A DNA stretch of 64,000 bases, from positions 14,411-78,410 of IMG/VR virus record IMGVR_UViG_3300045988_107637; one strand, given 5' to 3'. Under the pieces are notes generated by a model. The model saw only the letters and a program-made list of their open reading frames with translations. It made no database searches and was not told the DNA's origin. The position numbers and the translations under genes are program-made. Every line of letters begins with the position of its first letter. The stretch's first letter is position 1. Origin of the DNA: a virus. Of the stretch, positions 1,451-61,193 are shown one piece after another.

Positions 1451-1527
1451 ATCAATTTGTTATGTGCAAAAATAAGGTGTTTTTTTGAAAGCACCAAATA
1501 TCTGGCTACCAATTTGATACAAACCTT

Positions 1528-1545
1528 AGTTCTACAAGTACTTTT
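1528..1545. repeat. inverted repeat IR-L of the fibre invertible segment (AGTTCTACAAGTACTTTT)
   Basis: Exact reverse complement of 3734-3751. Imperfect dyad AGTTCTACAAGTACT. Confidence 0.8.
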
Positions 1546-2565
1546 TCGGGACGTGCAACGTTTAATGGTGGAATGTATTCTGGCAACATTTTCCCATTAA
1601 GCAATAATAATTACAGAATAGGTTCAAGTAGCAATAGATTTATAGATGCGTATATTCAAACTTGGGTCTATGCTAATACTGGTCTTTTTATGAGTCCATC
1701 TGGTATAACCCAAAATGGTTCTTATTTGGAACTTTCAAGCGGTGGCAATGAGATTATTATAGCTGGAGGTAGTGATATGTATGTTAATTATAGAGGTGCA
1801 AGTTATGGCGGTAGGTCTGTTCCTAAAAAATGGTATTGGAAAGCAGGAAGCAGTTCATCTTGGACAAATATGGAATTTGGAGATTGTACCCTGCATGGTT
1901 TGATAAATAGCACGGGAATATCTGCAAGTGGCGCTAATTCTTTTTATGTAGGAGCAAGGTTCTCAAATACGAGCAATGATAGTATTGAAATCGTTGGAGG
2001 TAATTATACAATGGGACTTGGCTGTCATTCAAACGGGTCTTGGTATTGGTGGAGAGGTACTGCTAACCCGACAATCTCTACAAATAAATCGTATGTTATG
2101 CAATATGATGGTAGCACATGGGCTTTTACTGGAAGTATTACTGCAACCTCTGCAATTACCGCTAAAGCTACTTCTGACTTTAGATTAAAAGAGAATTACG
2201 ATGGGCTTATAGATTACCGTGAAAGACTACTAAAACTTGGCAGAGTTTATGACTATAATTACAACAAAAAAGCATTGGATTTATACCAAGATAGGATAGA
2301 CAATAAACGTCATACCGGACTTGTATATCAAAATGCGGTGAAAGCTGGTATCACAAATTTCTGCCACGAAAAGGATGAGTATGGATATGGTAGCTTGAAT
2401 TATTTATCTCCCGACCTTATCGCAACAATCATTGGTTCTGTGCAAGCCAATATCCTTTCTATCCGTCTTGTTGAATCAGAGCAAGAACGAATGAGAAAGG
2501 AATTGGAGTACGCTAAATCAGAGATTAAGAGGCTTAAAGGCTTAGTTGCCTCTTTACAGAACTAA
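1528..2565 (+). CDS. start-less alternative tail-fibre C-terminal cassette (339 aa after the repeat) with intramolecular-chaperone (peptidase S74-type) end
   Basis: The frame is open from 1489 with no plausible start before the internal ATG at 1573. 1528-1545 encodes SSTSTF, identical in DNA and frame to fibre codons 2353-2358. Continues SGRATFNGG... (fibre has AGKATFNGG...). Ends with TSDFRLKENYDG...coiled coil, as the fibre ends with SSDIRLKKNIKEY. Confidence 0.7.
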   Translation, partial: SSTSTFSGRATFNGGMYSGNIFPLSNNNYRIGSSSNRFIDAYIQTWVYANTGLFMSPSGITQNGSYLELSSGGNEIIIAGGSDMYVNYRGASYGGRSVPKKWYWKAGSSSSWTNMEFGDCTLHGLINSTGISASGANSFYVGARFSNTSNDSIEIVGGNYTMGLGCHSNGSWYWWRGTANPTISTNKSYVMQYDGSTWAFTGSITATSAITAKATSDFRLKENYDGLIDYRERLLKLGRVYDYNYNKKALDLYQDRIDNKRHTGLVYQNAVKAGITNFCHEKDEYGYGSLNYLSPDLIATIIGSVQANILSIRLVESEQERMRKELEYAKSEIKRLKGLVASLQN

Positions 2566-5500
2566 GTTCTTTTTCTAAGGTAGCTATCTTCTTTTTGAGG
2601 GTAGCTACCTCATTATCTACTTGCTGAATACCTCGCCATAATACGGGTATTAAACGTTCGTATTGTATTACGTAATAATCTTTAAAACAGTTACTTACCC
2701 ATTGGCTATATCCATTTTTTAGCAAGTCTTGTGCAATAAGTCCGTAATGCTCCTCATTGTCATTAAAGATTGGAGAATTTGCTTTTGCGGTATCATTCCA
2801 GTAATACTTCACCGACTTTAACTTGTTAATAATATCCAAAGCATTGTATTCTTTGATATTTTTCTTCAATCTTATGTCAGAAGAAGAAGACTTGGCTGTA
2901 ATTGCACCTGCTGCTGTTATATTCCCCGAAGCTGTGATTGAAGCCACGCCAGTAAGACTGCCACTTACATTTGCAGTACCATTAAAGCTTTGACCCCAAA
3001 TAGTACGTGCTGTAGTAAGCTTAGTCGCAGTTGATGCAGAACTTGCATTGCCGGATAGTGAGCCGCTAAAGGTCGTGCTTGTAATGGAACTAAATCCCGT
3101 CATAGTTGCAGGCAAGTACATATTTACATTGCCCGACCCATTAACTGAATAGGAGTTATAATGCGCTCCGCTTGGGTCATTTATATAGAATGTCCGCGAT
3201 GTTCCCCAATATGAGGTTACATAATTCGTACTACCATTTATACTTGTTCCATTGATAGTACGTGCTGTCCCCCAATAGGAGGTTGTAATGTTTGCAGAGC
3301 CATTAAATGTAGTACCATTAATCGTCCGACCAGTCTGTAAGGTAGTTGCAGTCGTAGCGTTTCCACTAAGAGAGCCGGATAGTGAGCCGCTAAAGGTCGT
3401 GCTTGTAATGGAACTAAATCCCGTCATAGTTGCAGGCAAGTACATATTTACATTGCCCGACCCATTAACTGAATAGGAGTTATAATGCGCTCCGCTTGGG
3501 TCATTTATATAGAATGTCCGCGATGTTCCCCAATATGAGGTTACATAATTCGTACTACCATTTATACTTGTTCCATTGATAGTACGTGCTGTCCCCCAAT
3601 AGGAGGTTGTAATGTTTGCAGAGCCATTAAATGTAGTACCATTAATCGTCCGACCAGTCTGTAAGGTAGTTGCAGTCGTAGCGTTTCCACTAAGAGAGCC
3701 GGATAGTCCTCCATTGAATGTAGCTTTACCAGCAAAAGTACTTGTAGAACTTATGTCGAGATTATAACTATAAACACACTTCCATCTTAAATCAGTAGTT
3801 CCCGAAGTTATTGAATTACTAAGATGGGGCTTTATATTTTGATAATATGTATTTTCTATCGGATACGCTTCTGTAATCCCTCCTTGTGTCAGTGTTGTAC
3901 TAAGACTACTGTTAATTTCAGAGTTATTAATAACTTCTGCATTATTTCCATTTGCCTTAGTCTTATATTTTATACGGTATGGCAAAGTGATAGTAGATAA
4001 TCCTCCTGCAATAGTTGAACGAATAACCCCTCTAAAATAATAACTATCTATTCTATTATCCCGATATGGGATTTCAATACAATAATACCAAATGTCATTA
4101 TACTTACATTTTTTTAATACATATTGATTAGATAAAAAAGAGCTTATTGATTTTATATTCCAAAAAGTAGTATTATAAATAGTCGAAATCTTCACATCAA
4201 CCCAAAAGCATTGATTATGTCCATTTGTATATCCAGATATAGTACCATCTATAGTATTAAGACCGCCTAAATTAGTTGTAGCAGGAATAGGTAACAACAG
4301 CAATACTTCATAGCTATAACTTCCTTTACTACTCCAATATCTATGTTGAAAATGTTCTTCTCCACTTAGAAGCGAAAACTCTCTATTTAATCCAATTATA
4401 TTTTTATTTACTACTAATTCGGTTGATATAGTAGATGTATTGTTGTTCCATTTTTGCCACGGATTTGAATAAAGTCCAGCATAAGCATAAGAAACAGATT
4501 GCCCATTACCATAAAAACCAAATTTTACTGGAGTAGAAGAATTATTTATATTAGCACCATATCCTCTTTCCCATCCCCCAGTCATAGAATCACTAATATT
4601 TATAGAAAAACCTCCCCATTGAGAATATATTCTCGCAGTTATTTGCCCAGTACCTACAACTAAGTCTCCCGTCATAGTATCACCAGCCTTTTTGACGTAG
4701 GTAGAATTTAGGATGCTACTGTAGTTCTCTGAATCAATGAGTTGCTTCCACGGCCCATATCCCGTTTGTGGAAAACCTTTATTACGATAAAAAATATTTC
4801 CATTTGCCCATCCTCCAAAAAATAGCTGTGGTTGCCAATGATTTGAACGAGTACTACATATTTCCATGATATTACCATAAGTCTCAGGCATCGTACTCCC
4901 TAAGTCATAAATATCAAAGAAGTTGACCCTACTACTTCCTGCTCTATTCGTATTATTTATATTATCTGCACTCGTATTTGCGACTTTGACACTTCCAGAA
5001 GCATAATTAGTGCTATTATTTGAATGTAGGATAGTCCAAGAATTATAAGTCAAGAAGTTATTTCCTATAATAAAACTATATTTCCCAGCAGCATCATTCC
5101 AAACTTCTGTGCTTCCCAATGGATTTAAGAAAATACGTTGTACATTATTTTGATACCCGATTTCGGCAATTTTTGTATCTGATGCGACATTATTCCAAAT
5201 GATACCTCTTCTGTAATTAGGAGTATCTATTTGCATTCTAATAGAAAATTCAGCCGCATTTTTCAACTGTAATCTACCAGTCATTTCATCGCCTGCCTTC
5301 TTCACATAAAGAGCGTCTGTATATTCTTTATAATTTCCTCCGTGGAGTATTCTGTACCAAGTTCTGAAAGAACTTGCACCAACACCTCTAAAGTAAAAAT
5401 CATCAGAATTATAGGCTGCTCTTAATTGGAATAACCTATTTGCCGCAGAACCAATGTTTAATACAGTATCATTAGCACCAGTAGTTCCATATGCAGTACC

Positions 5501-8500
5501 ATTTGCCTCCCATACAGATGTCTTAGATGCTGTAAATGTAGATACAGTATCTATCGCAGTAGAGGTTATTTGAGCATATCTCTCTAAATGGTTAGCGGTA
5601 GTAGCAATATTGCCTTTAGTTAATGTCAGTACTCGCGTACTATTGTCATAAGTAGCGTTGGTAAGGACATTTCCCGTTCCAGTAATAGTAGTGGAAGGGT
5701 AGTTTGGGAGCGTAATATACTTGCTTGTGTCTGGCACATAAGTTTGGCTGTTAACTTTGATACCAGCAATGCCAGTACCTCCACCACCATTCTTTTCAAG
5801 CTCGGAAATTCTACTTGCCAACTTGTTGATAGTGTATGCGTTGAAGGTGTCTGATAATGTTGAATCAGCGAATGTGCCACCTAAACTTGAATATCCATAA
5901 ACGGTTTGGATAAGCCCACCGCCTCCTCCACCTCCACTACCAGAACTGATACCTTTTGCAGATACAGCACCGCTTGCGTAGAAGTTAACTGCCGAGCCAT
6001 CTTCTTTGTAGACTTTAATAGCATTATTGGCACTATCTACTCCAATGCGATACCCGGTTGTTCCTATTTCGATGTAGTTGGAAACTGTCAATTTCTGCAT
6101 CGGATATTGTGGTATCATGTAGCTAATAGTATTCGGAGTTCCAGAACGATATACAATCTGGAATAGAGAAACATAGTCGCCAAGCTGATTTTCTTTGATG
6201 ATGAATGATTGTGGGTCAGCATGGAAAACACCATCAGTCCCCCACCATACAGCACCGCTTGCAAGGTAGCCAGAGCCATCCATACGAATGATAGCCTTTG
6301 CTACATCTGATGGCATGTTTGCTTCTGTATAATCTGCTCTATCCTTCATAGAACCTCCATACCAAGAAGCAATACCTCCACCGACCTTAGTAGCATCATA
6401 GACACCATTCATACCGGACATTACTTTAAATCCAGCTACCGGGTCAGTATATCCCAGCATGTTTAACGCATTCTGAATAACACCACCTTCGATTGTGGTA
6501 CTCTCTTTCCACGCTTTCTTTAGATATTCATAACCAGCCAAGTCTTTTTTAACGGTATCTACTGCCGCCTTAGCTGCGTCACTGATGGCATTCAAAGCTG
6601 CCGTTCTTTGATTGTAGTATGCAGATTGCTTTGAAGCGAAGTCAGAAGGTATAGTTATATTTTCGGGAGTAGAAGCAGATAATGTAACCAACACTGCACG
6701 ATAATTGCTATGAGCATTTAGATAACCCGTAGGGCTACCCAATGAATACAAAGTATATCCTGCTGTAATATTAGTCTTGTCAGCGTCTATACGAACTATT
6801 TCGTCTTTAATAGCTTGCTTTTCAGTAGGAGATATAACTCCATCTTCTGCCCACTTATCCAATCTTTGCTTAGCTGCTTCCGCTTCTGCTTTAGCTGATT
6901 CGGCTAAGGCTTTAGCGTCATCTGCAAAAGTTTTCAATTTATCTTGAATGGCTTTGTTCGCTGTTTCTACGGCTGTATTGAAAGAAGCATAAGCTGTGTT
7001 GAAAGCAGAATATTTCGCATTCACATCTGTTTTCTCAGCTTCTGTTGCCTTACCGTCTGCTATAGCTGTGTTAATTGAATTAAGTAGATTTGTTATGGCA
7101 GCATTTAAAGACGTGTAACTTGAATTTAATCCAGTCTTCGCTTCACCAGCTAAATAGGCGTTAGCATATAGCTTGTCGAATGTTGCCTTTACTTCACTTT
7201 TGGTATTATTTACAATATTAATATATCTCTCTATCGACTGTGCCTCAGAAATATCAACAATACCGTCCTTAAAAGCTCCATCTACATATTGATTCAAATC
7301 TTCGACTGCTCCTGCTACGTTATCTGCTGCCGCTTTAGCCGCATCTGCCGTTTTTTTTGCCTCTTCCGCAGCTTTTTGGGCGTTTTCTGCGGAAGTGTTT
7401 ATTTTGTCTTGGATAAAGTTGTTGGCTGCATTCAAATAAGCTATAAAATCTCCGTATTTGGTATTGAAGGTGTCGTACCTACCATCTACCAAAGCGACTT
7501 CCGTTGAGGTAGCTACTCCGTCAGCTATAGCATTATCAATAGCTGTAATAAGTTCCGTGGTTGCCGTATTAAATCCGTCATAAGCAGTTTTTAGTTCTAC
7601 CTTAGCAGTACCGGACAATAAAGGATTAGCATAAACCTTAGAATAAGATTCCGCTACGCTCTTCTGTATTGATTTGATTGAGTTCAAATATTTCTCAATC
7701 GCAGCAGCTTCTTGTCTGTCAACAATACCATCTTTAAAGGCTTCGTCTGTGAAGTCTTTCATATTGGTTACAGTCTGCTTTGCGTCATTGGCTTCTTTCT
7801 TAGCTTCTTCTGCTGCCTTTTGCGCTTTAGCTGCTTCAAGATAAGCCTTTGAAGTGTCATTGTCTGCAATCTGCGTCCATCCCCATGTATCTCCCGTCTT
7901 TACCCATCTCCATGATTTTCCTGCATCGGGAGTAGTTTCATCATCGACATATTCTTGGATATTGGTAAATACATCACCTTCATGCCGTTTTTTCAAAGCT
8001 TCTGTATTCCAATCAACTGCTGGCTGGTTTGTAAGAGTTGGTGTGTATTCTCCATACCAAGTTTCCTTTACTCCATCTATCTGGTCTTGGAAGCTGTTAA
8101 ATGTTTCCTCAACGTCTTTGCCAGATTTGGTTACAAGTTTACCTTTTATCTCAACACCAGTTACCGTATCAAACTTCATATAGCTGCTCTTATCTCTTGC
8201 TCCAATATAAGAGTTGCCATAGACGTTCATATAAGCGAGATTTGTAGTCTTGTCAACACCGTAGGACACGTACTCTTTGTTGAGGTATGAATAGCTGTTT
8301 ATGCCAGCATATAAAGTCATACTTGGCGAGAAAGTGTCAACTGCACTAAAGATAATTGCATTCTGTCTTGTCTTGTCCTCTACATGAGTAACACCATTTG
8401 CATCAACAAAGGTCTTATTACCTAATTGGCAAATGGTATCTCCTACTCGTGGTGCATCACTGGCTGCATCTGCATCAGTTTTTGAGATGTCAATGTAATT

Positions 8501-10807
8501 AGTTCCTACGTTTACGACTAAACGCCAAAAGTAATGATTTGACACATTCTCATAAACTCCCTCCTTAATATTGAAGTCTTGTGCTAAAGCCATATCCCCA
8601 GCGCGGAAACGATTATCTAACGCTTCTGTGCCATCATCTTGATAGAAGTAACATCTCCAATAGTCCCAAACATTCTCGCCAGTCTTGTTACCTTCTTCGT
8701 CAAGTATATCATTTCTATCTTCTATCTTGATACATTCGATTGCACCACCGGGAGTAATCATTTGGCGACCTCCGATAACTCCGGTCTTGATAATCTCCAA
8801 AGCATAGAACATGGCTTTCATTCTTACTGTCAGATAATCAAGCTCTGCATGTGATTTTCCGTCTGTATCTGCATAGAATATACCGCCCGTACTTCCGGTC
8901 ACATAGCTACCGACTTTCAATCCACGCAAGAAAGTTATCATTCCTTGTGCGGTATCATCTTTAACTCTGCTGAGTTTTTTGTTCAGTTCGCCTACAATGT
9001 CAAGTCCATAAATAGCTTGTAACTGTGCTACTTGGCTTCCTAACTTACTAAGACCGTCAGCTATCTGTCCTATCTGATTTAGTACAATAGACACTTCGTC
9101 CGTTAAGGTAATATTATAAGTAGGAAGGGGATTTGTACCATATTGGATTGACATTTCCTTCACAGATAATTCCATAGCGTCCTCATTGTCTTTATACAAG
9201 AATCTGACAATAGTATTAGGCTTAATCTGCGCAAGAATTGCTTGGTTTGTTTCCAAGAAGTGTTCGTCGAAGCTCAAAGGATAGTCATACAAGGGCATAT
9301 TATTTTCAAGCATATATCTTTTCATGGCGACGTCCAAACGTTCTTGTGCCTTGTCTATATATGCTTGTGGCATTTCAATGTGCAATATGACAAACTTGTC
9401 GCCAGTTTTAACTTGCTGGAACTTGCTTGGCATTATCGTACCAAATGTATCTAAGTCCTTTGTCAGTTTAATAGTAATAGCTTGGTCTGTACTGTCTGGA
9501 TATTTAGCATAGTCCCTCTGTTCTCCATTTGGTTTGAATACAATGTTTCCAGCTTCATCAGTTACATAGAAGTTCTTTTTTACATCTTCCCAATCTACTG
9601 CTACCTCGTAGTTAGCTCCTAATGTGTCACCGGACTTCATGGAGAAGGTCATTCCACTTGTAACTGCTGCTTGTGCATATAAGTCAAAGCCAAGAGGATA
9701 AAGCGTCACATCAAAATACGACTGTCTAACCTCTCCCGTTTCGGGGTCAATATAATCATCCCAGCCACCTTCCGGTACTATTACTTCTTTGAACAAGTCA
9801 ATAGCTTGTCCCTTGTATGTCATACCTTTAATAGTAGGTTGTATGCTGGAAAATTCTTGGATATGGAATACTGGTGCAAGAGGATTGATAGGAGTAGGAT
9901 AGCTGCTATCTGCGTCATAGTAGTCAATGAGAGGTTCTTTAGAACCAAACAAGACTTTATTTCTAACTGCCTCTACATATACTGATGGCATTAACGTGTC
10001 ACGAGTATATGGGTGCTCAATGCGATTTCCGTCTGCATCTGTAATTATAGGATAGCCATACGGAATATTAATGTTGCTACCATATCCAGCAATACGAGTA
10101 ATGACCTTATTATTCTTTGGTGTGCAATCGTTGTTTTTCAGTCCTACACCTTGTCCGAATTTGAATATGTATGGCTTGTTTTCATCGTCGAGTATTTCCT
10201 TAGATGGCTTGCCAAACCAAATAGTATATCCATCAACTACAAATGGGACTTTCCATGTTTCGTATGCAGTCTTGCAAACGTCTGAAATAAATTGATTGCT
10301 GAATGATAACACATCACTCATTGTCCCATCATCTACAAATGTTGGCTGTAACTTGCAAGTCCATTTAGTTCCGACAAGACATGAGTTGATTTTTTGAACG
10401 AACATGCTTAATGTACCAATCCACGAGAAAGTTCGTTTTTCGCTGCGATAACTTTCCTCACTGCTACTAATAGCAATGTCAGTAAAGGGAATGTTGTACA
10501 ATTCAATCATTTCGTGGTAGAAAGTACAACTATACTTAGTCATTCCTTTAGCCTCACTATTTTCCGAAGTCATTCCTTTTCTAACAACTACGGGAGGATT
10601 TTTAAGTATGTACTTTATTCCTTTATACTCTACATATTCTTGCAGAGTAAACGAAAGTGAATTGTCTTTATAATAAAACTCTCCCTCTATCTTGTCATTT
10701 AACGACATAACAATAGTTGAGAAAGTGTGTTTTCTCAGACTGATGTCGTGGAAGGGAGTACCATCTTCATTGTATATATTCAGTATAGGGTTTACTTCGT
10801 TCGCCAT
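2534..10807 (-). CDS. giant tail fibre / tail-tip protein (2757 aa)
   Basis: Single ORF with an ATG start. Contains a ~150-aa coiled-coil module repeated about 2.5x (AQKAAEEAKK...FKDGIVD...), a glycine run (SGSGGGGGGG), an exact 108-aa tandem duplication, and a C-terminal SDIRLKKNI... chaperone-of-endosialidase-type domain followed by a coiled coil. Confidence 0.85.
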   Translation of the reverse strand: MANEVNPILNIYNEDGTPFHDISLRKHTFSTIVMSLNDKIEGEFYYKDNSLSFTLQEYVEYKGIKYILKNPPVVVRKGMTSENSEAKGMTKYSCTFYHEMIELYNIPFTDIAISSSEESYRSEKRTFSWIGTLSMFVQKINSCLVGTKWTCKLQPTFVDDGTMSDVLSFSNQFISDVCKTAYETWKVPFVVDGYTIWFGKPSKEILDDENKPYIFKFGQGVGLKNNDCTPKNNKVITRIAGYGSNINIPYGYPIITDADGNRIEHPYTRDTLMPSVYVEAVRNKVLFGSKEPLIDYYDADSSYPTPINPLAPVFHIQEFSSIQPTIKGMTYKGQAIDLFKEVIVPEGGWDDYIDPETGEVRQSYFDVTLYPLGFDLYAQAAVTSGMTFSMKSGDTLGANYEVAVDWEDVKKNFYVTDEAGNIVFKPNGEQRDYAKYPDSTDQAITIKLTKDLDTFGTIMPSKFQQVKTGDKFVILHIEMPQAYIDKAQERLDVAMKRYMLENNMPLYDYPLSFDEHFLETNQAILAQIKPNTIVRFLYKDNEDAMELSVKEMSIQYGTNPLPTYNITLTDEVSIVLNQIGQIADGLSKLGSQVAQLQAIYGLDIVGELNKKLSRVKDDTAQGMITFLRGLKVGSYVTGSTGGIFYADTDGKSHAELDYLTVRMKAMFYALEIIKTGVIGGRQMITPGGAIECIKIEDRNDILDEEGNKTGENVWDYWRCYFYQDDGTEALDNRFRAGDMALAQDFNIKEGVYENVSNHYFWRLVVNVGTNYIDISKTDADAASDAPRVGDTICQLGNKTFVDANGVTHVEDKTRQNAIIFSAVDTFSPSMTLYAGINSYSYLNKEYVSYGVDKTTNLAYMNVYGNSYIGARDKSSYMKFDTVTGVEIKGKLVTKSGKDVEETFNSFQDQIDGVKETWYGEYTPTLTNQPAVDWNTEALKKRHEGDVFTNIQEYVDDETTPDAGKSWRWVKTGDTWGWTQIADNDTSKAYLEAAKAQKAAEEAKKEANDAKQTVTNMKDFTDEAFKDGIVDRQEAAAIEKYLNSIKSIQKSVAESYSKVYANPLLSGTAKVELKTAYDGFNTATTELITAIDNAIADGVATSTEVALVDGRYDTFNTKYGDFIAYLNAANNFIQDKINTSAENAQKAAEEAKKTADAAKAAADNVAGAVEDLNQYVDGAFKDGIVDISEAQSIERYINIVNNTKSEVKATFDKLYANAYLAGEAKTGLNSSYTSLNAAITNLLNSINTAIADGKATEAEKTDVNAKYSAFNTAYASFNTAVETANKAIQDKLKTFADDAKALAESAKAEAEAAKQRLDKWAEDGVISPTEKQAIKDEIVRIDADKTNITAGYTLYSLGSPTGYLNAHSNYRAVLVTLSASTPENITIPSDFASKQSAYYNQRTAALNAISDAAKAAVDTVKKDLAGYEYLKKAWKESTTIEGGVIQNALNMLGYTDPVAGFKVMSGMNGVYDATKVGGGIASWYGGSMKDRADYTEANMPSDVAKAIIRMDGSGYLASGAVWWGTDGVFHADPQSFIIKENQLGDYVSLFQIVYRSGTPNTISYMIPQYPMQKLTVSNYIEIGTTGYRIGVDSANNAIKVYKEDGSAVNFYASGAVSAKGISSGSGGGGGGGLIQTVYGYSSLGGTFADSTLSDTFNAYTINKLASRISELEKNGGGGTGIAGIKVNSQTYVPDTSKYITLPNYPSTTITGTGNVLTNATYDNSTRVLTLTKGNIATTANHLERYAQITSTAIDTVSTFTASKTSVWEANGTAYGTTGANDTVLNIGSAANRLFQLRAAYNSDDFYFRGVGASSFRTWYRILHGGNYKEYTDALYVKKAGDEMTGRLQLKNAAEFSIRMQIDTPNYRRGIIWNNVASDTKIAEIGYQNNVQRIFLNPLGSTEVWNDAAGKYSFIIGNNFLTYNSWTILHSNNSTNYASGSVKVANTSADNINNTNRAGSSRVNFFDIYDLGSTMPETYGNIMEICSTRSNHWQPQLFFGGWANGNIFYRNKGFPQTGYGPWKQLIDSENYSSILNSTYVKKAGDTMTGDLVVGTGQITARIYSQWGGFSINISDSMTGGWERGYGANINNSSTPVKFGFYGNGQSVSYAYAGLYSNPWQKWNNNTSTISTELVVNKNIIGLNREFSLLSGEEHFQHRYWSSKGSYSYEVLLLLPIPATTNLGGLNTIDGTISGYTNGHNQCFWVDVKISTIYNTTFWNIKSISSFLSNQYVLKKCKYNDIWYYCIEIPYRDNRIDSYYFRGVIRSTIAGGLSTITLPYRIKYKTKANGNNAEVINNSEINSSLSTTLTQGGITEAYPIENTYYQNIKPHLSNSITSGTTDLRWKCVYSYNLDISSTSTFAGKATFNGGLSGSLSGNATTATTLQTGRTINGTTFNGSANITTSYWGTARTINGTSINGSTNYVTSYWGTSRTFYINDPSGAHYNSYSVNGSGNVNMYLPATMTGFSSITSTTFSGSLSGSLSGNATTATTLQTGRTINGTTFNGSANITTSYWGTARTINGTSINGSTNYVTSYWGTSRTFYINDPSGAHYNSYSVNGSGNVNMYLPATMTGFSSITSTTFSGSLSGNASSASTATKLTTARTIWGQSFNGTANVSGSLTGVASITASGNITAAGAITAKSSSSDIRLKKNIKEYNALDIINKLKSVKYYWNDTAKANSPIFNDNEEHYGLIAQDLLKNGYSQWVSNCFKDYYVIQYERLIPVLWRGIQQVDNEVATLKKKIATLEKELSSVKRQLSL
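2558..2575 (+). terminator. weak hairpin plus T-run at the convergent 3' ends of the two fibre C-terminal exons
   Basis: AGAAC-TAA-GTTCT followed by TTTTT. The stop codon of the plus-strand cassette lies in the loop. The stem is only 5 bp. Confidence 0.3.
3051..3707. repeat. exact 324-bp tandem duplication (2 copies plus 9 bp) inside the fibre gene
   Basis: 3051-3374 and 3375-3698 read identical base for base, and 3699-3707 starts a third unit. Encodes SGSLSGNATTATTLQTGRTING...TSTTFSG twice. Confidence 0.9.
3734..3751. repeat. inverted repeat IR-R of the fibre invertible segment
   Basis: AAAAGTACTTGTAGAACT is the reverse complement of 1528-1545. Lies in fibre codons 2353-2358. Confidence 0.8.
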
Positions 10808-30025: not shown

Positions 30026-30055
30026 CTTTTAAACTTTAGTTTTAAATAATGATTT

Positions 30056-30415
30056 ATGAATTTTATCATAGATTGTCAAATTTATCCTTTTCATATAATG
30101 GTACATTTTGGAAATAAAAAAGACTTAATTATGAATTTGAAAAAATACGGTATAAATCTTTCACAAAAAGATATAAAAGGTAAATATAAAAGTCTATTTC
30201 TAAATGATAATCAGACTATACTATACATGGATATTATACCTAAAACTATAGATGAATTATCTATTTTGCAACATGAAATTTTCCATTGTGTAATGTTTAT
30301 ATTGGATAAAATTGGAATAAAATTGTCATATAAAACAGATGAAATTTATGCCTATCTTATCCAATATATAACTAAACAAATTTACCTTAAAATATCTCCT
30401 ACTTCTTTTTCTTAA
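30056..30415 (+). CDS. small HExxH (zinc metallopeptidase-like) protein
   Basis: 119 aa with LQHEIFHCV. The local sequence is visibly more AT-rich than its neighbours, which looks moron-like. Confidence 0.45.
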   Translation: MNFIIDCQIYPFHIMVHFGNKKDLIMNLKKYGINLSQKDIKGKYKSLFLNDNQTILYMDIIPKTIDELSILQHEIFHCVMFILDKIGIKLSYKTDEIYAYLIQYITKQIYLKISPTSFS

Positions 30416-30530
30416 TCGTAGAAGGTGTTTTAATGGTTTCTACTATAACTGCCTTAATAAAAAAGCACCTACTTCGCAGCAGATGCTTAAAAAATGAAAA
30501 AATACAAATCACGTAACCAAATCGTGATAC

Positions 30531-30560
30531 ACAGAGTTGTTGCAGCAACTCTGTTTTTTT
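30531..30560 (+). terminator. rho-independent terminator ending the plus-strand arm
   Basis: ACAGAGTTG-TTGCAG-CAACTCTGT followed by T7. Confidence 0.75.
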
Positions 30561-30678
30561 AAAGCGGACGAGCGCATCTCGGAATTAATAAATCACAATT
30601 ATGGCTAAATACATCATTGAGATTGAAATGCGCTCAATCCACTGCAAATATATGAAAACTTATTGATATAAGCAAGAT

Positions 30679-32046
30679 TTATAATGGGTCTAACATTCTA
30701 ACTGTTATGGAAGCTCCTTTTTTATCAATATTTACCCCATTTACTCCAAATCTAACCCATATTCCTAATACTGGTTGAATATTATTAGTAGTAGTATAAG
30801 AAGGTAAATTATTTAAGAATGCAGATAAAGCAGTTCTTGTTCCTCCCGTATAGCTATCTCTTGCTGTTATTCTGTAAGTTCCAGCACTTGCAACAGATGT
30901 TACAGCAGTCCATGTCCCATTTTTCATCATTTCAATAGAGCCGGATTGATTAATATAAACAGTTTCTAATCCTAAATATACATTAGAAGCATTTAATAAT
31001 TTTCCAGTAGAGTTATAGGAAAAATCAAATATTACAGTCATACCACAAGAATAACTATTCTTAGGTTTAGTCCAAACACTTATTCCACCTTCATTCAATG
31101 CAAAATTTCTATTTCCTGCATCGCTATTATAATACATTACATATCCACCCGTAACTTTTACATTATAAACCTCAGAAGCATTTTTTATATTAATAGTAAT
31201 TTTCTCTCCTTCTGGCATACAAAAGGCTCTTCCTCCTCCTAAAAAACGAAAGTATTTGCCTGCTGGGTCAGTCGTTACATAAGTTAGATTATAGCCTATG
31301 AACGGAATAGCATTTAATGTTTTTACATTCTTATCAATAGCTGATTTTATGTACTGTTTTACTCTATCTGACAATGATAGATTAATAATCATTTTAGAAA
31401 TATCAGCAGAAGAACTTAAAGAGGTAATAGCCTTCTCGTGTGAAGCATATTGAACAATATAACCTCCATTTTCATGTGGGAAATATATTGCTAATCCAAA
31501 TCTCCAATTACCATTTGAAATTGGCATTCCACTTATTATAGTAAGTTGATTTAATGGAATTTCTATTCCTGAAGTATCTCCAATACCTTCCCAAGAACTA
31601 TCTCCAAATTTAGCATTAAATGTATAGGTAGGCAAGCTATTTATTTCATCACTATAAATAGTTATATTTTTAAATCCAGAAGCAGGGGCTTTTGCTGAAT
31701 GATTATATCCAAAATTAGTAGGATAGTCTTCATTTAAAAAGTCAGTTGCCCTATAGTATTCATTAGGTTTTGTATATCCCCATTTCCCAGTAGTAGGTAT
31801 TGAACTTACCATTTCTTTTACTAAAGCTGAAACTTCATAACAAGACAATCCATAATTTGTAGATTTTCTTTCTGATGAAGTTAACTCGCCAAATTTAGCA
31901 TATCTAACTGGTTTATACTTTGCAAATTTATTAATAGAATCTGCTTTACATAGTGTTCCTAAATCGGTACTTGAATAACCTATTGCTGCTGGTATATCTA
32001 CTCCAATATTTAATGGAGCTATTAATCTTCCACTATTAACTGACAT
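30679..32046 (-). CDS. receptor-binding / tail-spike-type protein, paralog 1
   Basis: ATG at 32046 preceded by AAAGGAGG (the track start at 32064 is a TTG). The N-terminus SGRLIAPLNIG...SSTDLGTLCKADSINKFAKYKPV is shared with paralogs 2 and 3. The C-terminus is unrelated. Confidence 0.6.
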   Translation of the reverse strand: MSVNSGRLIAPLNIGVDIPAAIGYSSTDLGTLCKADSINKFAKYKPVRYAKFGELTSSERKSTNYGLSCYEVSALVKEMVSSIPTTGKWGYTKPNEYYRATDFLNEDYPTNFGYNHSAKAPASGFKNITIYSDEINSLPTYTFNAKFGDSSWEGIGDTSGIEIPLNQLTIISGMPISNGNWRFGLAIYFPHENGGYIVQYASHEKAITSLSSSADISKMIINLSLSDRVKQYIKSAIDKNVKTLNAIPFIGYNLTYVTTDPAGKYFRFLGGGRAFCMPEGEKITINIKNASEVYNVKVTGGYVMYYNSDAGNRNFALNEGGISVWTKPKNSYSCGMTVIFDFSYNSTGKLLNASNVYLGLETVYINQSGSIEMMKNGTWTAVTSVASAGTYRITARDSYTGGTRTALSAFLNNLPSYTTTNNIQPVLGIWVRFGVNGVNIDKKGASITVRMLDPL

Positions 32047-32263
32047 AGTTACCTCCTTTCGCAACTACTGCACCAAGCACAACCACACACAAAGAGCGAC
32101 AATCGAAAGATTCTACATTCAAGTCCCCTTCAATTATCGCTGCTTCACTAACATTAAAATGTTCTTCTAACTGTTCAAGTGAGGTACTAAAAATCCCCCC
32201 CCCAGTTATATTGTTGGTAACCAACAAGTTACCTTTAATTAATAAATCTACTTTCTTTTTCAT
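32036..32263 (-). CDS. small ORF (75 aa) containing a G9 tract, stop overlapping the paralog-1 start
   Basis: ATG start. ACT GGG GGG GGG ATT is read in frame. Its TAA at 32036-32038 lies 6 nt inside the downstream gene. Confidence 0.45.
   Translation of the reverse strand: MKKKVDLLIKGNLLVTNNITGGGIFSTSLEQLEEHFNVSEAAIIEGDLNVESFDCRSLCVVVLGAVVAKGGNYVS
32195..32203. repeat. homopolymer C9 (G9 on the coding strand)
   Basis: Counted directly. Unusual in this AT-rich sequence. Confidence 0.9.
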
Positions 32264-32368
32264 ATCTACTATTATTATCTATCATAAACTCTTGTATAGA
32301 ATGAACCTACCATTGAGCTACTTTCTGCCTTTCCGGGAAGGTTCTAAAAATATAGTTGTTGATGTTTA

Positions 32369-33535
32369 CTAATTGCACCTGTAATTAAGTTCAAACCTTA
32401 TAATCCTATTTTGATTGTAACCGTTGATTTTTGCTTCTGCATAGAACACGTTTGTGCGAGTGTTATATGACGAATAATTGTTTCCAATCATTCTTGTTTT
32501 AAAATACAAAGTCACCGAGCCATTTGCAGGTATGTCTACGGAATAGACCTGCTGTTTGTTAGAATTGTACATCTTCAAATCTTCGTTGTATGTCTCGGTT
32601 TCTGGATTTCCGTTAACATCATATCCGTGGAAGGTGAAATCTGTCACATTGACGGTAACTTTCGTACTACGACTGTTTGAACATGTAGTCTTCCAATACT
32701 CCGAATAATCTCCGTTATAAGATACGACAAAAGGCGTAGTCATGTAATAATCTTCCGTCTGGTACGCTCCGTTGAGTTCGTTTGACATGTATTGGTCTTT
32801 GAACGTGATTCCGCTACCGATTTCTGTGTAATTTACTACCGCCGAATTGGTCTTTCCCGTGTAGTTTGGAACCGAATAGCATTGTATTACGGTAGGAAAT
32901 GTGGATAACGAAGGATAGTTTTCGGTCGTTAGGAACTGCTCAATCGTAAAACTCGATTTTCCTACGCTTTTGGGATTTAGTACACATGCCAATAACTGGC
33001 TATCGCCTATCACATCAGCTACCGTTTTCTTGCTTGTAAGTATTTTGTTGCCGTCAATCCGCAAGCCAAGCCGCATTTTCATCAATAACGGCAAATCTTT
33101 AGCATTAAGATTGTATTGCCCGTACCTTTCCCATAGCAACGCACCAATGTACAAATCACCAGTTTCAGAATCGCAGTCATATTTCGGATTGAGATTTCCG
33201 GAAATTATAAATTCCGATACATGGTTATACTTATCAAAGTCGGTCAACCGATACGGTTCTGAATCTCCGCCTCTTGGGGCTGCGTGGCTCCATGGCGTAT
33301 TAATCACGCTGTCAAGCGAGGAAGAGGAAGGTATGTGTAATCCATATTGTGCTTCATTGAATTCGCTTTCATAAAGTTCATTGAACATCGGCACTCTTAC
33401 CGGTTTGTACTTCGCCCACATATTAATCTTCTCGCTCTTGCACAGTGTACCCAAGTCATAGCTTGAAACGCCTAAAACAGTACGCACATCTTCTATGCTT
33501 ACTGGTGCTGTAATCTTTCCTCCGCTATTTGACAT
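32369..33535 (-). CDS. receptor-binding / tail-spike-type protein, paralog 2
   Basis: 388 aa with an ATG start. N-terminus GGKITAPVSIEDVRTVLGVSSYDLGTLCKSEKINMWAKYKPV. Confidence 0.6.
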   Translation of the reverse strand: MSNSGGKITAPVSIEDVRTVLGVSSYDLGTLCKSEKINMWAKYKPVRVPMFNELYESEFNEAQYGLHIPSSSSLDSVINTPWSHAAPRGGDSEPYRLTDFDKYNHVSEFIISGNLNPKYDCDSETGDLYIGALLWERYGQYNLNAKDLPLLMKMRLGLRIDGNKILTSKKTVADVIGDSQLLACVLNPKSVGKSSFTIEQFLTTENYPSLSTFPTVIQCYSVPNYTGKTNSAVVNYTEIGSGITFKDQYMSNELNGAYQTEDYYMTTPFVVSYNGDYSEYWKTTCSNSRSTKVTVNVTDFTFHGYDVNGNPETETYNEDLKMYNSNKQQVYSVDIPANGSVTLYFKTRMIGNNYSSYNTRTNVFYAEAKINGYNQNRIIRFELNYRCN

Positions 33536-33543
33536 ATCACAAG

Positions 33544-33567
33544 TATTTAGTTCTAAGAGAACTTGGT
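33544..33567. repeat. left inverted repeat of the putative invertible promoter (TATTTAGTTCTAAGAGAACTTGGT)
   Basis: Perfect 24-nt reverse complement of 33708-33731. Contains the 15-bp palindrome AGTTCTAAGAGAACT. Lies 8 nt from the paralog-2 start codon. Confidence 0.85.
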
Positions 33568-33575
33568 GGCTTGCA

Positions 33576-33601
33576 TTTGTGAATAATTATGTTTATCTTT
33601 G
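33576..33601 (+). promoter_or_regulatory. promoter-like element inside the IR-flanked segment (TTTG ... TATCTTTG)
   Basis: TATCTTTG at 33594-33601 matches TAnnTTTG and faces the plus-strand paralog. The TTTG at 33576 is only 14 nt upstream, which is shorter than the consensus spacing. Confidence 0.45.
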
Positions 33602-33707
33602 TGTAAAAGTTTAATCTACAACGCATTATATAGAATGATATGAAAAAGGATGTGAGAGTTGTTAACGGCTTCAATGCTGCCACGGGTAGCTCAAAGCCAT
33701 GTTTCTT

Positions 33708-33731
33708 ACCAAGTTCTCTTAGAACTAAATA
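33708..33731. repeat. right inverted repeat of the putative invertible promoter
   Basis: ACCAAGTTCTCTTAGAACTAAATA. Lies 8 nt from the paralog-3 start codon. Confidence 0.85.
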
Positions 33732-34840: not shown

Positions 34841-34865
34841 AAAAGGGGAACTTTCCAAGCTCCCC
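34841..34865 (-). terminator. terminator hairpin between convergent genes
   Basis: GGGGAGCTT-GGA-AAGTTCCCC followed by TTTT on the minus strand. Confidence 0.55.
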
Positions 34866-36409: not shown

Positions 36410-36441
36410 CAAAAGTAGATAAAATCTGTGAAAGTTCCAAA
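36410..36441 (-). promoter_or_regulatory. Bacteroides-type promoter TTTG-N20-TACTTTTG
   Basis: Minus strand reads TTTGgaactttcacagattttatcTACTTTTG. Related to the promoters at 38665, 47373 and 57078. Confidence 0.6.
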
Positions 36442-38664: not shown

Positions 38665-38696
38665 CAAAGGTATGCTAAATTTTGGAAAGTTCCAAA
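38665..38696 (-). promoter_or_regulatory. Bacteroides-type promoter TTTG-N20-TACCTTTG with palindrome TTTTGGAACTTTCCAAAA over the -33 element
   Basis: Minus strand reads TTTGgaactttccaaaatttagcaTACCTTTG. Confidence 0.6.
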
Positions 38697-38823: not shown

Positions 38824-40029
38824 CTACCCACGAACTAAAGATTCGTGGGCTTCCGACTTCACAGAGGAATGCCCTTTCAAAAGATTAGGTCTTCTATCCT
38901 CTCCATCGGTGTAATCGACAGTCCCTGCCGATATATTATTTAATCCTAATTTTAGGATATTGATAGCAGCATTTACATCTCTATTATGATGTGTACCGCA
39001 AGATGGGCAACCCCATTCTCTTACTTTCAAGTCTTTTATTTCGCTATTACGATAGCCACAAACATTACAAAGCTGAGAGGATGGAAAAAACCTATCAATC
39101 TTAACTACATTTCTACCATTCCAATTAGCCTTATATGTTAGCATAGTGACGAATGTCCCCCAACTTGCATCAGTAATTGATTTAGCAAGTTTATGGTTTC
39201 GTACCATACCTTTCACATTAAGGTCTTCAATACAAATGGTGTCGTAGTTAGAGATTAGAGAGTGAGAACACTTATGCAAGTAGTCCATACGGCAATTAGA
39301 AATCTTCTCATAGAGTTTAGCAGCTTTGAGCCTTTGGTTTTCGTACTCATTACTACCTTTCTTTTTTCTTGAGAGGTGTCTCTGTGCTACTGCAAGTTTC
39401 TTCTCATATCTCTTTGTGTATCTATTATTCTTGAATACTTCACCATCAGATGTTATCAGTAGGTCTTTCAAACCTAAATCTACACCAACTGCTTTATTAG
39501 CAGGTGCAAGTTCTTGATAATCCTCTATTGTGAATACTGATACAAAATACTTTCCTGTTGGAGTTTTAGTTAGACTAACTTTGCCCATCTTACCTTTGAT
39601 TTCTCTATGCAGACGGATAGTTATACCACTCTTGAATTTAGGTAGCCACAATTTACTATTTTCAATAGTTGCAAATTGGGGTACGGTAAATGTATTCTTA
39701 CCTTTCTTTGAGTGATAGTTAGGGAACTTCGCTCTCTTTTGGAAGAAATTAGTGTATGCAGTTTCAAGATTACGCAAAGCAAATTGAAGTGTTTGAGAGT
39801 TTACTTCTTTAAGCCAAGCGGTTTCTTCTTTTTTCTTTAATTCAGTTAAAGCCTTTGCCTGAGCATAGTAGTTATCACTCTCTCCTTCCTCTTTATATTG
39901 CTCTTGCCTTTGATTAAGGAAATAGTTATAGACAAAGCGAGTACAGCCGAAGTGCTTCGCCAACAATTCCATTTGGGAAGCATTTGGATATATCCTAAAT
40001 CTGTATGTTCTATTTATCGTCTTAATCAT
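38824..40029 (-). CDS. tnpB: TnpB RNA-guided nuclease (IS605 OrfB family)
   Basis: The ATG at 40029 gives [16 protein letters not shown]. RuvC motifs [20 protein letters not shown] and RDVNAAINI are present. Zinc finger CNVCG...CPSCG. The track start at 40161 overlaps tnpA and is probably too long. Confidence 0.85.
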
Positions 40030-40107
40030 AGTGCAAATATACATATAAGTATTTACAAAAACAAGAAATGTTTTGTAAAAGTGAAATATTTTCGTTAATT
40101 TTGTAGT

Positions 40108-47372: not shown

Positions 47373-47404
47373 CAAAAGTAGCTGAAATTTTGGAAAGTTC
47401 CAAA
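47373..47404 (-). promoter_or_regulatory. Bacteroides-type promoter TTTG-N20-TACTTTTG with TTTTGGAACTTTCCAAAA palindrome
   Basis: Minus strand reads TTTGgaactttccaaaatttcagcTACTTTTG. Confidence 0.6.
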
Positions 47405-57862: not shown

Positions 57863-59077
57863 CTATTTGTTAATAAATTTCTTAACTGGGTTATACCCAA
57901 ACCCTCTATAGGGTGGCATTGCTGCATCCCCTTTTACTTTTCTCATGATGTTGTAGGCTCCGTTTATATCTGCATTGAGTAAAATCCCGTTCTTTGTTCT
58001 GAAAAGACCTCTTTTTACTCTCTTTCCAACATAACTATCATGATGTTTTATCTCCTCTAAATCTAAAGAACTGCATTTCGACGTGTGAGATTCGTTTATT
58101 TCAACAAATCTTAGTCCTTGTCTTTCAGATTTATACCTTAACATTGATATGAACGTCTCAAACGGAATTGAAACAAAATTCTGATTGTTTCTTTTACTCA
58201 TATTCACTTCCTGTTTCCATCCGTCATTATGTCCCACTATCAATGTCGTTATGTTGTCTTCCAGGCACATGCCTACAATTTCCTTGCTTGCCTTATGCAA
58301 ATAATCCTTGACCTTATTGTTTCTCTTTCTTGTAAGGTTCATTAACCGTCTCGAATTTTCCTTTCCATTTGTTTTCTTTAATTGTGATTGAACTTTAGCT
58401 TTTTTCTTGTTATAATACTGATTGACAGACTTTAATTTCTTTCCATCTATCAAAACAGCCTTATTGCTCGTATTCGTTACAATAGAAGCAAAGTTGTTAA
58501 CCCCCAAATCAATAGACATATATCTATTGTTATCTGGTAACTGTTCCTTTACCTCCGATTCATACACCAATTCTATTACATAACAGTCTGCTTTCGGAAC
58601 AAATCTGACTTGCTTAACCGTTCCTTCCTTACATCTGGTTTTCAATGGTTGCAAACCTTCTTTCTTTGGAAAGTAAATATATTCTCCTCTATGCTTAAAT
58701 TGTGCATAAGAATAAGAAAATATATTTCTTCCTTTTGTTTTATGCTTGTATTTCGGGAATTTAGGACATCCAGTAAATTTCTTGTTATCCCTTTTCCATG
58801 CTTTAATGGCTGAAAAATAAGATTTCAGATTTCTATCCAAAGCCATAAGTATTTGCTGGGAAGAAGAACCGCTCATAGCCCTAAAATCAACATTGTTTTC
58901 TGCAACCATCTTTTTGTTAAGCTCCACAGACCTTATCCATTTCCCGGAAACAAGAAATTCTTGCTTTATGATATACAAAGCCGCGTTATACAAGTTCTTA
59001 GATAAGAAACAAATCCGGTCTAAATCCTTGTACCTCTTGTCATTGACTGTTATTATATGTTGCTCCGTTAAATACAT
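57863..59077 (-). CDS. tnpB: divergent solo TnpB-like protein (IS605 OrfB / IS1341-like)
   Basis: 404 aa. RuvC-I SIDLGVNN and RuvC-III NADINGAYNI are present. The usual RuvC-II E position reads LIVGHNDGWKQE, with a Glu in EINESHTSKC. The CxxC zinc finger is replaced by C...HH. No tnpA is adjacent. Confidence 0.7.
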   Translation of the reverse strand: MYLTEQHIITVNDKRYKDLDRICFLSKNLYNAALYIIKQEFLVSGKWIRSVELNKKMVAENNVDFRAMSGSSSQQILMALDRNLKSYFSAIKAWKRDNKKFTGCPKFPKYKHKTKGRNIFSYSYAQFKHRGEYIYFPKKEGLQPLKTRCKEGTVKQVRFVPKADCYVIELVYESEVKEQLPDNNRYMSIDLGVNNFASIVTNTSNKAVLIDGKKLKSVNQYYNKKKAKVQSQLKKTNGKENSRRLMNLTRKRNNKVKDYLHKASKEIVGMCLEDNITTLIVGHNDGWKQEVNMSKRNNQNFVSIPFETFISMLRYKSERQGLRFVEINESHTSKCSSLDLEEIKHHDSYVGKRVKRGLFRTKNGILLNADINGAYNIMRKVKGDAAMPPYRGFGYNPVKKFINK

Positions 59078-60377: not shown

Positions 60378-61193
60378 TTATAGGTTATTATATTCTTTAT
60401 ATTTAGAAATTGAATTGAACGTAGCTTGTACGCGGCTACTAATATACTGATAAAAATTAGCATTCGTAAAGTCAATGCCGATAAACAATTTGTTGTTGTT
60501 TCTATTGGCTTCCTGCATGAGTTCCTTTATTTCCGCTTTGTGACACTGGGTGAGAACAAAACTTGTACGGTATTTAGTCCAATTCAAAAAGAACAGTTCT
60601 TCATCTGTAGAATTTTCATTCAGCATAGGTATTACTTTTCGTAGTATTCTACAAAAACAAGCGAACTCAGCACTTTCTACTACTTTTCTGTTTCGCGTTC
60701 TTGCACTTGCTATACTTGCTTGCTTCTTACTTTCTTCGTCAATTCGATAATTGCTATTAGCTGTGCCAGATAATATGCCACGTGCCTTGTTCGCTGCTAA
60801 AGCCTCCTTTGTTCGTTTGCTAATTAGTTCGCGTTCGTACTGCGCCACGGATGCAAAGATACCTAATATCATAGTGTTGACTACTGGAAGGTCACAAAAG
60901 TATATTTCTATGCCCGTATTTACTACATGAAAAACGAACTCGGCATCTCTTGAAAGCCTATCGAGCTTAGCCACTACAAGGGTGCAACTATTAGCTTTGC
61001 AATACTCTATAGCTTTCCACAACTCCACACGGGAACAGTCTTTTCCCGAAGCCACATCTACAAACTTACCACAAATAATTCCACCTTTGCTATTAATATA
61101 GTCTATACAAGTCTTTTCTTGGGCTGACAACCCTAAACCGCTATCACCTTGTTTATTCGTTGATACACGAAGGTAGTAAACATATTTATCCAT
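60378..61193 (-). CDS. serine recombinase (resolvase/invertase catalytic domain) with atypical ~120-aa C-terminus
   Basis: YYLRVSTNKQ (catalytic Ser), LVVAKLDRLSRD and QYERELISKRTKEAL are present. No recognisable Hin-type C-terminal HTH. It is the only recombinase seen in the window. Confidence 0.8.
   Translation of the reverse strand: MDKYVYYLRVSTNKQGDSGLGLSAQEKTCIDYINSKGGIICGKFVDVASGKDCSRVELWKAIEYCKANSCTLVVAKLDRLSRDAEFVFHVVNTGIEIYFCDLPVVNTMILGIFASVAQYERELISKRTKEALAANKARGILSGTANSNYRIDEESKKQASIASARTRNRKVVESAEFACFCRILRKVIPMLNENSTDEELFFLNWTKYRTSFVLTQCHKAEIKELMQEANRNNNKLFIGIDFTNANFYQYISSRVQATFNSISKYKEYNNL

Follow-up and report, generated by a model that had tools for sequence, protein, structure and literature searches.

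A 140-bp segment between divergent paralogs of a Bacteroides phage is probably an invertible promoter

Where two paralogous genes are transcribed away from each other, and the short segment between them carries a promoter and is bounded by inverted repeats, the question arises whether the segment can be turned round and its orientation decide which of the genes is read. Such a locus lies in a 64,000-nt stretch of the IMG/VR virus record IMGVR_UViG_3300045988_107637 (positions 14,411–78,410 of that record; this whole stretch is called the window here). The window and Bacteroides phage C3_41T2LP (OR296439.1), a cultured lytic siphovirus of B. uniformis, share about 95% identity. An earlier note, made from the letters of the window, had proposed that a 140-bp segment flanked by perfect repeats acts as a switch between the minus-strand gene on its left and the plus-strand gene on its right, which we call gene A. 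We find it likely, taking the explanation as a whole, that this segment is a site-specific invertible promoter cassette. Of its parts, inversion at the repeats is very likely, flipping by the phage's own serine recombinase is quite likely, and an either/or switch between gene A and the left-hand operon is reasonably likely.

The repeats lie where the earlier note had placed them, and the right one is the exact reverse complement of the left. A gap of 8 nt separates each repeat from the nearer start codon, that of the minus-strand open reading frame (ORF) 32369–33535 on the left and the ATG at 33740 on the right; both start codons are outside the repeats. If the paralogous N-terminal codons are included, the arms of the inverted repeat reach 132 nt, at 71% complementarity. 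Outside the perfect 24 bp, however, the identity of the arms is only about 65%, and the two 8-nt spacers agree at 3 of 8 positions, so that the repeats do end abruptly beside diverged coding DNA, as had been pointed out. Given 71% background identity, the probability of a 24/24 match is approximately 3e-4, and in random sequence the chance of such an inverted pair is negligible. The repeat pattern, allowing up to three mismatches, matched seven times in the window against 0.28 expected. The 15-bp palindrome reported for each repeat, AGTTCTAAGAGAACT, was also found in both arms, with a 6-3-6 arrangement. Most relatives have a repeat of 26 bp, with AA added at both inner ends. The segment is enclosed, as invertons are, by a pair of short inverted repeats.

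Scanning IMG/VR for the repeat gave 65 loci, and 14 more came from metagenome contigs searched for the gene-A-side repeat. Protein look-ups by exact sequence added two copies of the switch, both forward-oriented. After all loci had been oriented by the segment, 34 complete switches were counted, including the window and the two look-up loci; some of the 34 are possibly one assembly present in two collections. These counts are across assemblies of related phages, with one orientation per assembly. The promoter points towards gene A in 30 of the 34, and the segment is cleanly flipped in the other four (L034, L058, L060 and L108). Partial flipped copies are present at two further loci (L001 and L064), one of which is the cultured relative C3_41T2LP. 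The linear record of this phage starts and ends within the segment; when it is read across its ends, the promoter end adjoins gene A, the opposite of the window, and about 35 nt are absent at the junction. The central prediction of the earlier note, that the segment would occur in the other orientation, was therefore borne out in C3_41T2LP and in metagenomic relatives, between the same genes and with breakpoints in the repeats. Both states expected of an inverton are represented among related genomes (30 forward, four complete flipped and two partial flipped).

One flipped and one unflipped locus (L060 and L023) have flanks that are 99.0% and 99.8% identical, and their segments agree at 140 of 140 positions but are inverted with respect to each other. 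For every flipped locus, the closest neighbour in gene A is unflipped, differing at 5–22 positions per 1100 nt and lying nearer than any flipped locus, which suggests about four independent flips among the relatives. An outer polymorphism, TATTTA or TATTAA, always remains with the flanking gene in flipped relatives, and the two bases next to the repeat on its inner side (GG or AA) always move with the segment. The exchange point therefore lies within the repeat. Two complete-genome assemblies end inside the 140 bp, with 35–65 nt lost: OR296439.1 (L001 1–103, L002 1–30), which is from a plaque-purified isolate, and IMG/VR contig 106397 (L049, L064). Breaks at this place are what a population of mixed orientation might be expected to yield.

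Fourteen relatives (Table 1) are without window positions 30034–30454 and 30509–33610; of the switch, all that remains upstream of gene A is the right repeat with the adjoining 97 nt of the segment. The absence of 30509–33610 deprives them of the plus-strand terminator-like hairpin and the left-hand operon, as well as of the left repeat and the promoter. In these relatives gene A comes directly after the tail operon, in what looks like a fixed, switch-less gene-A arrangement. Separately, at three loci (L018 482–1666, L026 and L057) the invertible segment carries an insertion of about 1.2 kb encoding a 394-aa TnpB-like protein. The insertion lies at the -7 box and is co-directional with the promoter, and its far end restores a -7-like sequence.

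Each arm of the switch reads, from outside to inside, TATT(T/A)-AGTTCT-NNN-AGAACT-TGGT, with T/A variation at position 5. The half-sites AGTTCT and AGAACT are invariant in all switch copies. The centre is AAG, TGG or TGA according to lineage, and in 33 of the 34 switches the two arms agree in it. The crossover sites of serine recombinases combine invariant half-sites with a variable centre that is required to match in both partners, and the repeat centre shows the pattern expected of a recombinase crossover core. Serine invertases act at sites of about 26 bp with a 2-bp core; the sites here are 24–26 bp long, but their dyad crosses a 3-nt spacer. The core AGTTCT-N3-AG(A/T)ACT has just five occurrences in the window, at 1528, 3751, 5360, 33549 and 33712. 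Lone sites with other centres (GTT, ATA, CCT and ACA) were seen at four loci of the relatives (L007, L019, L052 and L053), where they have no partner site.

The core is shared with inversion modules in the tail genes. Two sites with the centre ACA, mutually inverted and 2.2 kb apart, enclose the last ~400 codons of a tail ORF (2534–10807, minus strand) and the opposite ORF 1573–2565; inverted repeats of 50 nt, 76% identical and 2.1 kb apart, are located at 1523–3756. Across the two ACA sites, translation continues in frame and the peptide SSTSTF(A/S)G(K/R)ATFNGG is maintained; inversion there would therefore swap the C-terminus of the tail protein. The equivalent sites of C3_41T2LP are about 2.4 kb apart (at about 26.7 and 29.1 kb of the record), in or beside the annotated tail protein gene. 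An inversion of about 2 kb in the tail fibre gene of C3 phages arose during plaque-purification passages (PMC9727126), and it corresponds to these sites. Several relatives (L021, L033, L061, L062, L065, L046 and L048) carry a second site with the centre TTC at the outer boundary, giving the nested order TTC, ACA, ACA, TTC, and the outer and inner segments are both polymorphic in state among relatives. A reading of the TTC matches as coding coincidences was dropped; they proved to be genuine sites, belonging to nested inversions of the tail gene. An exchange of C-terminal cassettes of the Mu G or P1 C type is thus found at 1526–3753, and not at the 140-bp segment, where the start codons are outside the repeats.

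The only site-specific recombinase found in the window is the product of 60378–61193, which has a resolvase-type catalytic domain with a serine nucleophile (PF00239, YYLRVSTNKQ). Its best NCBIfam match is the Mpi family (NF009949), at 37.9 bits against a cut-off of 272 and hence outside the family, and the protein also matches, weakly, gamma-delta resolvase and PDB chains that bear the name 'DNA-invertase'. Neither the scanned window ORFs nor the annotated relative C3_41T2LP yielded a tyrosine recombinase; two TnpB genes are present. Relatives carry two alleles of the recombinase (window 60378–61193 and L099 1501–2313), which are 59% identical overall and mosaic. Most of their differences fall in the N-terminal catalytic part, residues ~178 to 271 being near-identical, and the DNA sites are unchanged; this fits a conserved C-terminal DNA-binding domain that reads unchanged sites. 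The gene-A-side repeat pattern gave 0 matches in 185,579 bacterial and archaeal genomes, with no prophage copies, and a supplementary table appears to list the C3 phages as not lysogenic (PMC9727126). A role as an integrase is therefore unlikely; the protein is also too small for a large serine integrase. The site motif common to the switch and the tail genes favours assigning the recombinase to the 140-bp switch.

The promoter described in the earlier note was likewise confirmed as a motif: TAnnTTTG occurs once on the plus strand of the 140 bp, at 33594–33601 and facing gene A, and not at all on the minus strand. The full motif TTTG-N13–23-TAnnTTTG was found eight times in the window, in every case upstream of a gene in the right orientation when positions were read against the ORF list. 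In relatives the segment motif is conserved, the sole variation being at an 'n' position of the -7 box. A scan for sigma-70 promoters was uninformative (25 sites against 25.8 expected). Because terminator-like hairpins stand on both sides and a single -33/-7 motif was recognised between them, the cassette region appears to be an insulated island whose sole recognisable promoter is on the flippable segment. The internal promoter that drives a flanking gene in an inverton would here be the conserved predicted motif at 33576–33601, acting between the flanking terminators.

Two kinds of related sequence occur elsewhere in the window. The site TTTGTAAATACTTATATGTATATTTG (40034–40059, minus strand) agrees with the segment promoter at 22 of 26 positions and has the same unusual 14-nt spacing. 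It stands directly before the start of the TnpB gene 38824–40030; the second TnpB gene is at 57863–59077. A near-identical promoter family, TTTGGAACTTTC-N-TAnnTTTG with 20-nt spacing, is present at 36410–36441, 38665–38696 and 47373–47404 (minus strand), with a looser copy at 1467–1498. These lie upstream of minus-strand gene blocks and are probably one temporal class of phage promoters.

A 30-codon upstream ORF within the segment is open in all relatives and would end just before either start codon. It carries no coding signal among the relatives, variable sites falling 5/3/6 by codon position. An in-frame ATG at 33674, which would extend either gene through the repeat, was rejected; conservation between the paralogs starts at the annotated methionine and there is no codon signal. 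The predicted fold of the 5′ untranslated region (UTR) is no stronger than that of shuffled controls (z = -0.03). Short inverted matches of 17 and 18 nt, with 78–88% identity, link 32250–32321, upstream of the third paralog, with 33637–33703 in the right half of the segment, and the 75-aa ORF of the left-hand operon begins MKKKVDLL, compared with MKKDVRVV in the upstream ORF. The two matches are non-collinear and may be chance.

The products of gene A and the left paralog are 46% identical over ~118 N-terminal residues and have unrelated C-termini. The left-hand cassettes differ among relatives (flank clusters B, C, D and E). In the confident AlphaFold model of the gene A product (predicted local distance difference test score 89.5), a small N-terminal alpha/beta domain is joined to two Ig/FN3-like beta-sandwiches. 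Matches to the model were limited to uncharacterised gut-phage proteins and generic Ig/FN3 tandems. A role of the gene A and left-hand products as tail-tip adhesins is plausible from their position after the tail module, their shared N-terminus and their variable C-termini; the label 'receptor-binding' would derive from position and predicted fold.

Table 1. Features of the switch locus, the recombinase and the tail-gene inversion modules (window coordinates)
Feature	Position	Strand	Remarks
Left inverted repeat	33544–33567		TATTTAGTTCTAAGAGAACTTGGT; TATTT-AGTTCT-AAG-AGAACT-TGGT; proposed crossover site
Right inverted repeat	33708–33731		exact reverse complement of left repeat
Invertible segment, 140 bp	33568–33707	+	promoter rightward in window, towards gene at 33740; both orientations in relatives
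Bacteroides-type promoter motif	33576–33601	+	predicted; -33 TTTG 33576–33579, 14-nt spacer, -7 TATCTTTG 33594–33601
Upstream ORF, 30 codons	33640–33732	+	spans right repeat, stops 7 nt before ATG 33740; speculative leader
Gene A, 366 aa	33740–34840	+	constant switch partner; predicted N-terminal alpha/beta domain and two Ig/FN3-like beta-sandwiches
Left paralog, 388 aa	32369–33535	-	first gene of left-hand operon; only N-terminal ~118 aa common with gene A
75-aa ORF	32036–32263		left-hand operon, between third and left paralogs
Third paralog	30679–32046	-	start MSVNSGRLIAPL...; downstream in left-hand operon; 35% identity to gene A N-terminal domain
Strong terminator-like hairpin	34845–34865	-	would halt leftward transcription before cassette region and gene A
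Back-to-back terminator-like hairpins	30463–30554		30463–30488 (-), 30531–30554 (+); between plus-strand tail operon and left-hand operon
Small serine recombinase, 271 aa	60378–61193	-	candidate invertase; PF00239 3e-24; PHROG 125 'DNA invertase' 3e-29; motif YYLRVSTNKQ
ACA-centre site	1526–1545	+	TTAGTTCT-ACA-AGTACTTTT; outer end of 2.2-kb invertible tail-fibre segment
Partner ACA site	3734–3753	-	within 2757-aa tail ORF; reading frame kept for both C-terminal cassettes
Invertible coding segment	1546–3733		two alternative C-terminal cassettes: 2534–3733 (-) in use, 1546–2565 (+) silent
Palindromic site, centre TTC/GAA	5357–5376		CCAAGTTCT-GAA-AGAACTTG; in large tail ORF, near-perfect 9-3-9; no partner in window
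Switch-less relatives			L005, L011, L014, L015, L020, L022, L025, L030, L038, L039, L043, L054, L055, L063

In the mechanism that we propose, the serine recombinase most likely binds the AGTTCT/AGAACT half-sites in both 24-bp repeats, and would cut near the central 2–3 nt and then rotate the segment. In the orientation of the window, the predicted promoter would transcribe to the right, through the right repeat and into gene A. In the flipped orientation it would transcribe to the left, through the other repeat and into the 32369–33535 paralog, the 75-aa ORF and the 30679–32046 paralog. As terminators bound the region on both sides, only the gene set that the promoter faces should be expressed. 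The shared N-terminal domain presumably serves for attachment to the virion, and the C-terminal beta-sandwiches differ. Given this common N-terminus and the different C-termini, each flip would give the virions another tail-tip adhesin. The same enzyme probably also inverts the C-terminal cassettes of the large tail protein, whose sites have the same half-sites and the centres ACA and TTC, and the differing centres would stop the switches from recombining with each other.

Inversion itself could be doubted on two grounds. Short inverted repeats can mislead assemblers, and two assemblies end inside the segment, so flipped copies might be assembly artefacts; this is the least probable explanation that we considered. 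Repeats of 24–26 bp are shorter than typical reads and k-mers, so that a 140-bp flip needs junction-spanning reads, and the flipped junctions were found in six independent assemblies, from an isolate and from metagenomes, with both junctions reciprocal in four. Hardly more credible is the alternative raised in the earlier note, that there is no inversion and the repeats are a duplicated operator, or an RNA hairpin in both 5′ UTRs. It would agree with the 6-3-6 palindrome in each arm, and with the lone right arm that persists upstream of gene A in the 14 relatives without the left arm. It is contradicted by the flipped relatives, in which both segment orientations are seen between identical flanks, by the motif positions, the motif being absent from the window's other promoters and present in coding sequence at the other inversion breakpoints, and by the UTR fold (z = -0.03). 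If inversion is real, it might still result from general recombination at short repeats, by a phage RecT/YqaJ system or host RecA, with occasional exchanges having become fixed in particular lineages. In its favour, the annotation of the close relative includes RecT- and YqaJ-type genes, the presence of the recombinase does not follow that of the switch, and 30 of 34 assemblies share one orientation. We nevertheless consider general recombination decidedly unlikely. Perfect identity extends over just 24–26 bp with sharp ends, next to paralogous DNA of ~65% identity; the same half-site motif stands at the genome's other inversion breakpoints; the centres change in concert in both arms; about four independent flips appear to have occurred among very close relatives; and two complete-genome assemblies, C3_41T2LP and IMG/VR contig 106397, break within the 140 bp.

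It is also possible, though unlikely, that the segment flips site-specifically and yet is no either/or promoter switch, either because both gene sets are also transcribed from elsewhere or because its cargo is a leader or the upstream ORF. The segment promoter is a prediction with an atypical -33/-7 spacing, the right 97 nt of the segment and the right repeat are kept upstream of gene A in switch-less relatives, and the 30-codon ORF ends just before either start codon. Against this, no other TAnnTTTG faces either gene in the insulated region, terminators flank that region, the upstream ORF has no coding signature and the UTR no special structure. A number of other observations weigh against an invertible promoter cassette worked by the phage recombinase. 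The spacing of 14 nt compares with 20 nt in the phage's four other canonical-looking promoters. Most assemblies, 30 of 34, have the same orientation, and flipping was seen between assemblies of relatives rather than at read level in one population. The palindrome has an odd spacer of 3 nt, while serine recombinases cut around a 2-bp centre, and one copy alone (L010, IMG/VR contig 095029) has mismatched centres, TGG and AAG; this copy is perhaps a natural recombinant that is locked, or else an assembly chimera. The recombinase is 27 kb from the switch, whereas the genes of the Hin, Gin, Cin and Pin invertases lie beside or inside their invertible segments, in systems that use a Fis-dependent enhancer. 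Such invertases are about 190 aa long with a C-terminal helix-turn-helix; this protein is 271 aa long, and no Pfam family matches its last 135 aa, even with the threshold relaxed to E = 10. The recombinase is present at 96–98% identity in the 14 relatives that have the right repeat alone and lack the left cassette. In a co-occurrence test, absence of the gene had been expected in relatives without the left repeat; it was found to be present, and the test hence gave no support. Its retention could be accounted for if the enzyme also serves the tail-gene inversions. Pfam and PHROG searches of the switched proteins found no family, and thus no recognised receptor-binding family. Finally, the 2-kb tail fibre inversion was without visible effect in host-range spot tests (PMC9727126).

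The invertible promoter cassette may be part of a larger arrangement, to which we would give about even chances. One serine invertase of a virulent gut Bacteroides phage would then act on three sets of sites with common half-sites and the centres TTC (outer tail-fibre segment), ACA (inner tail-fibre segment) and AAG/TGG/TGA (promoter segment), so as to combine nested shuffling of the C-terminus of the tail fibre with a promoter flip that chooses between alternative adhesin operons of the tail tip, the centres serving as an address code by which the switches stay independent. The matched-centre rule suggests a compact orthogonal set of recombination sites for one small recombinase, with possible use in Bacteroides engineering.

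Bacteroides hosts escape phages by flipping the promoters of capsules and surface proteins. The lytic phage described here appears to apply host-like promoter flipping to its own tail proteins. To our knowledge, phage-side variation systems in the Bacteroides-phage arms race have barely been described, and the larger arrangement, if it exists, would match, on the side of the phage, the phase-variable capsules of the hosts. The C3 phage family has been cultured on B. uniformis and is common in human gut metagenomes, and the idea is therefore directly testable. Our literature searches found a brief mention of the 2-kb inversion only, and no account of the promoter switch.

Among known systems, the switch can be compared with Hin/hix of Salmonella, in which a small serine recombinase inverts a promoter segment between inverted repeats of about 26 bp and so chooses the surface protein. 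The two have in common a promoter segment bounded by short repeats, a serine recombinase (a candidate in the phage) and an orientation that determines, or here would determine, the surface protein. Hin, however, is encoded within its own segment of about 1 kb, which has a Fis-bound enhancer, turns one operon on or off and is carried by a bacterium, whereas the phage segment has 140 bp and no gene, a recombinase 27 kb off and two divergent sets of paralogs, in a lytic phage. Another parallel is the sap locus of Campylobacter fetus, where one invertible promoter between oppositely oriented homologous surface-protein genes selects the gene that is expressed. That inversion is RecA-dependent and involves long conserved 5′ coding regions and kilobases of DNA, in contrast to the short, sharply bounded phage segment with its recombinase-type sites.

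In Mu Gin/G, P1 Cin/C, e14 Pin, p15B Min and the Bifidobacterium prophage Rin shufflon (PMC6109161), a phage-encoded serine invertase alters tail proteins by inversion. The module at 1526–3753 is exactly of the Mu/P1 type, with a constant N-terminal part and alternative C-terminal cassettes. Those systems invert coding segments behind a fixed promoter in temperate phages and prophages, whereas the 140-bp switch would invert a promoter between complete genes, in a phage that is apparently virulent. Bacteroides fragilis Mpi offers a further likeness, since Bacteroides-type -7 promoters lie there on short invertible segments and one serine invertase acts in trans on distant loci. Unlike Mpi, the window recombinase falls outside that family (37.9 against 272 bits) and the repeat sequence is another one; the Mpi targets are host-chromosomal and each is turned on or off. 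As proposed, the switch differs from Hin, Mu Gin, Mpi and C. fetus sap in being a promoter flip between complete divergent tail-protein genes of a virulent phage, and one target among several in an inversion system that tells its sites apart by their centres alone.

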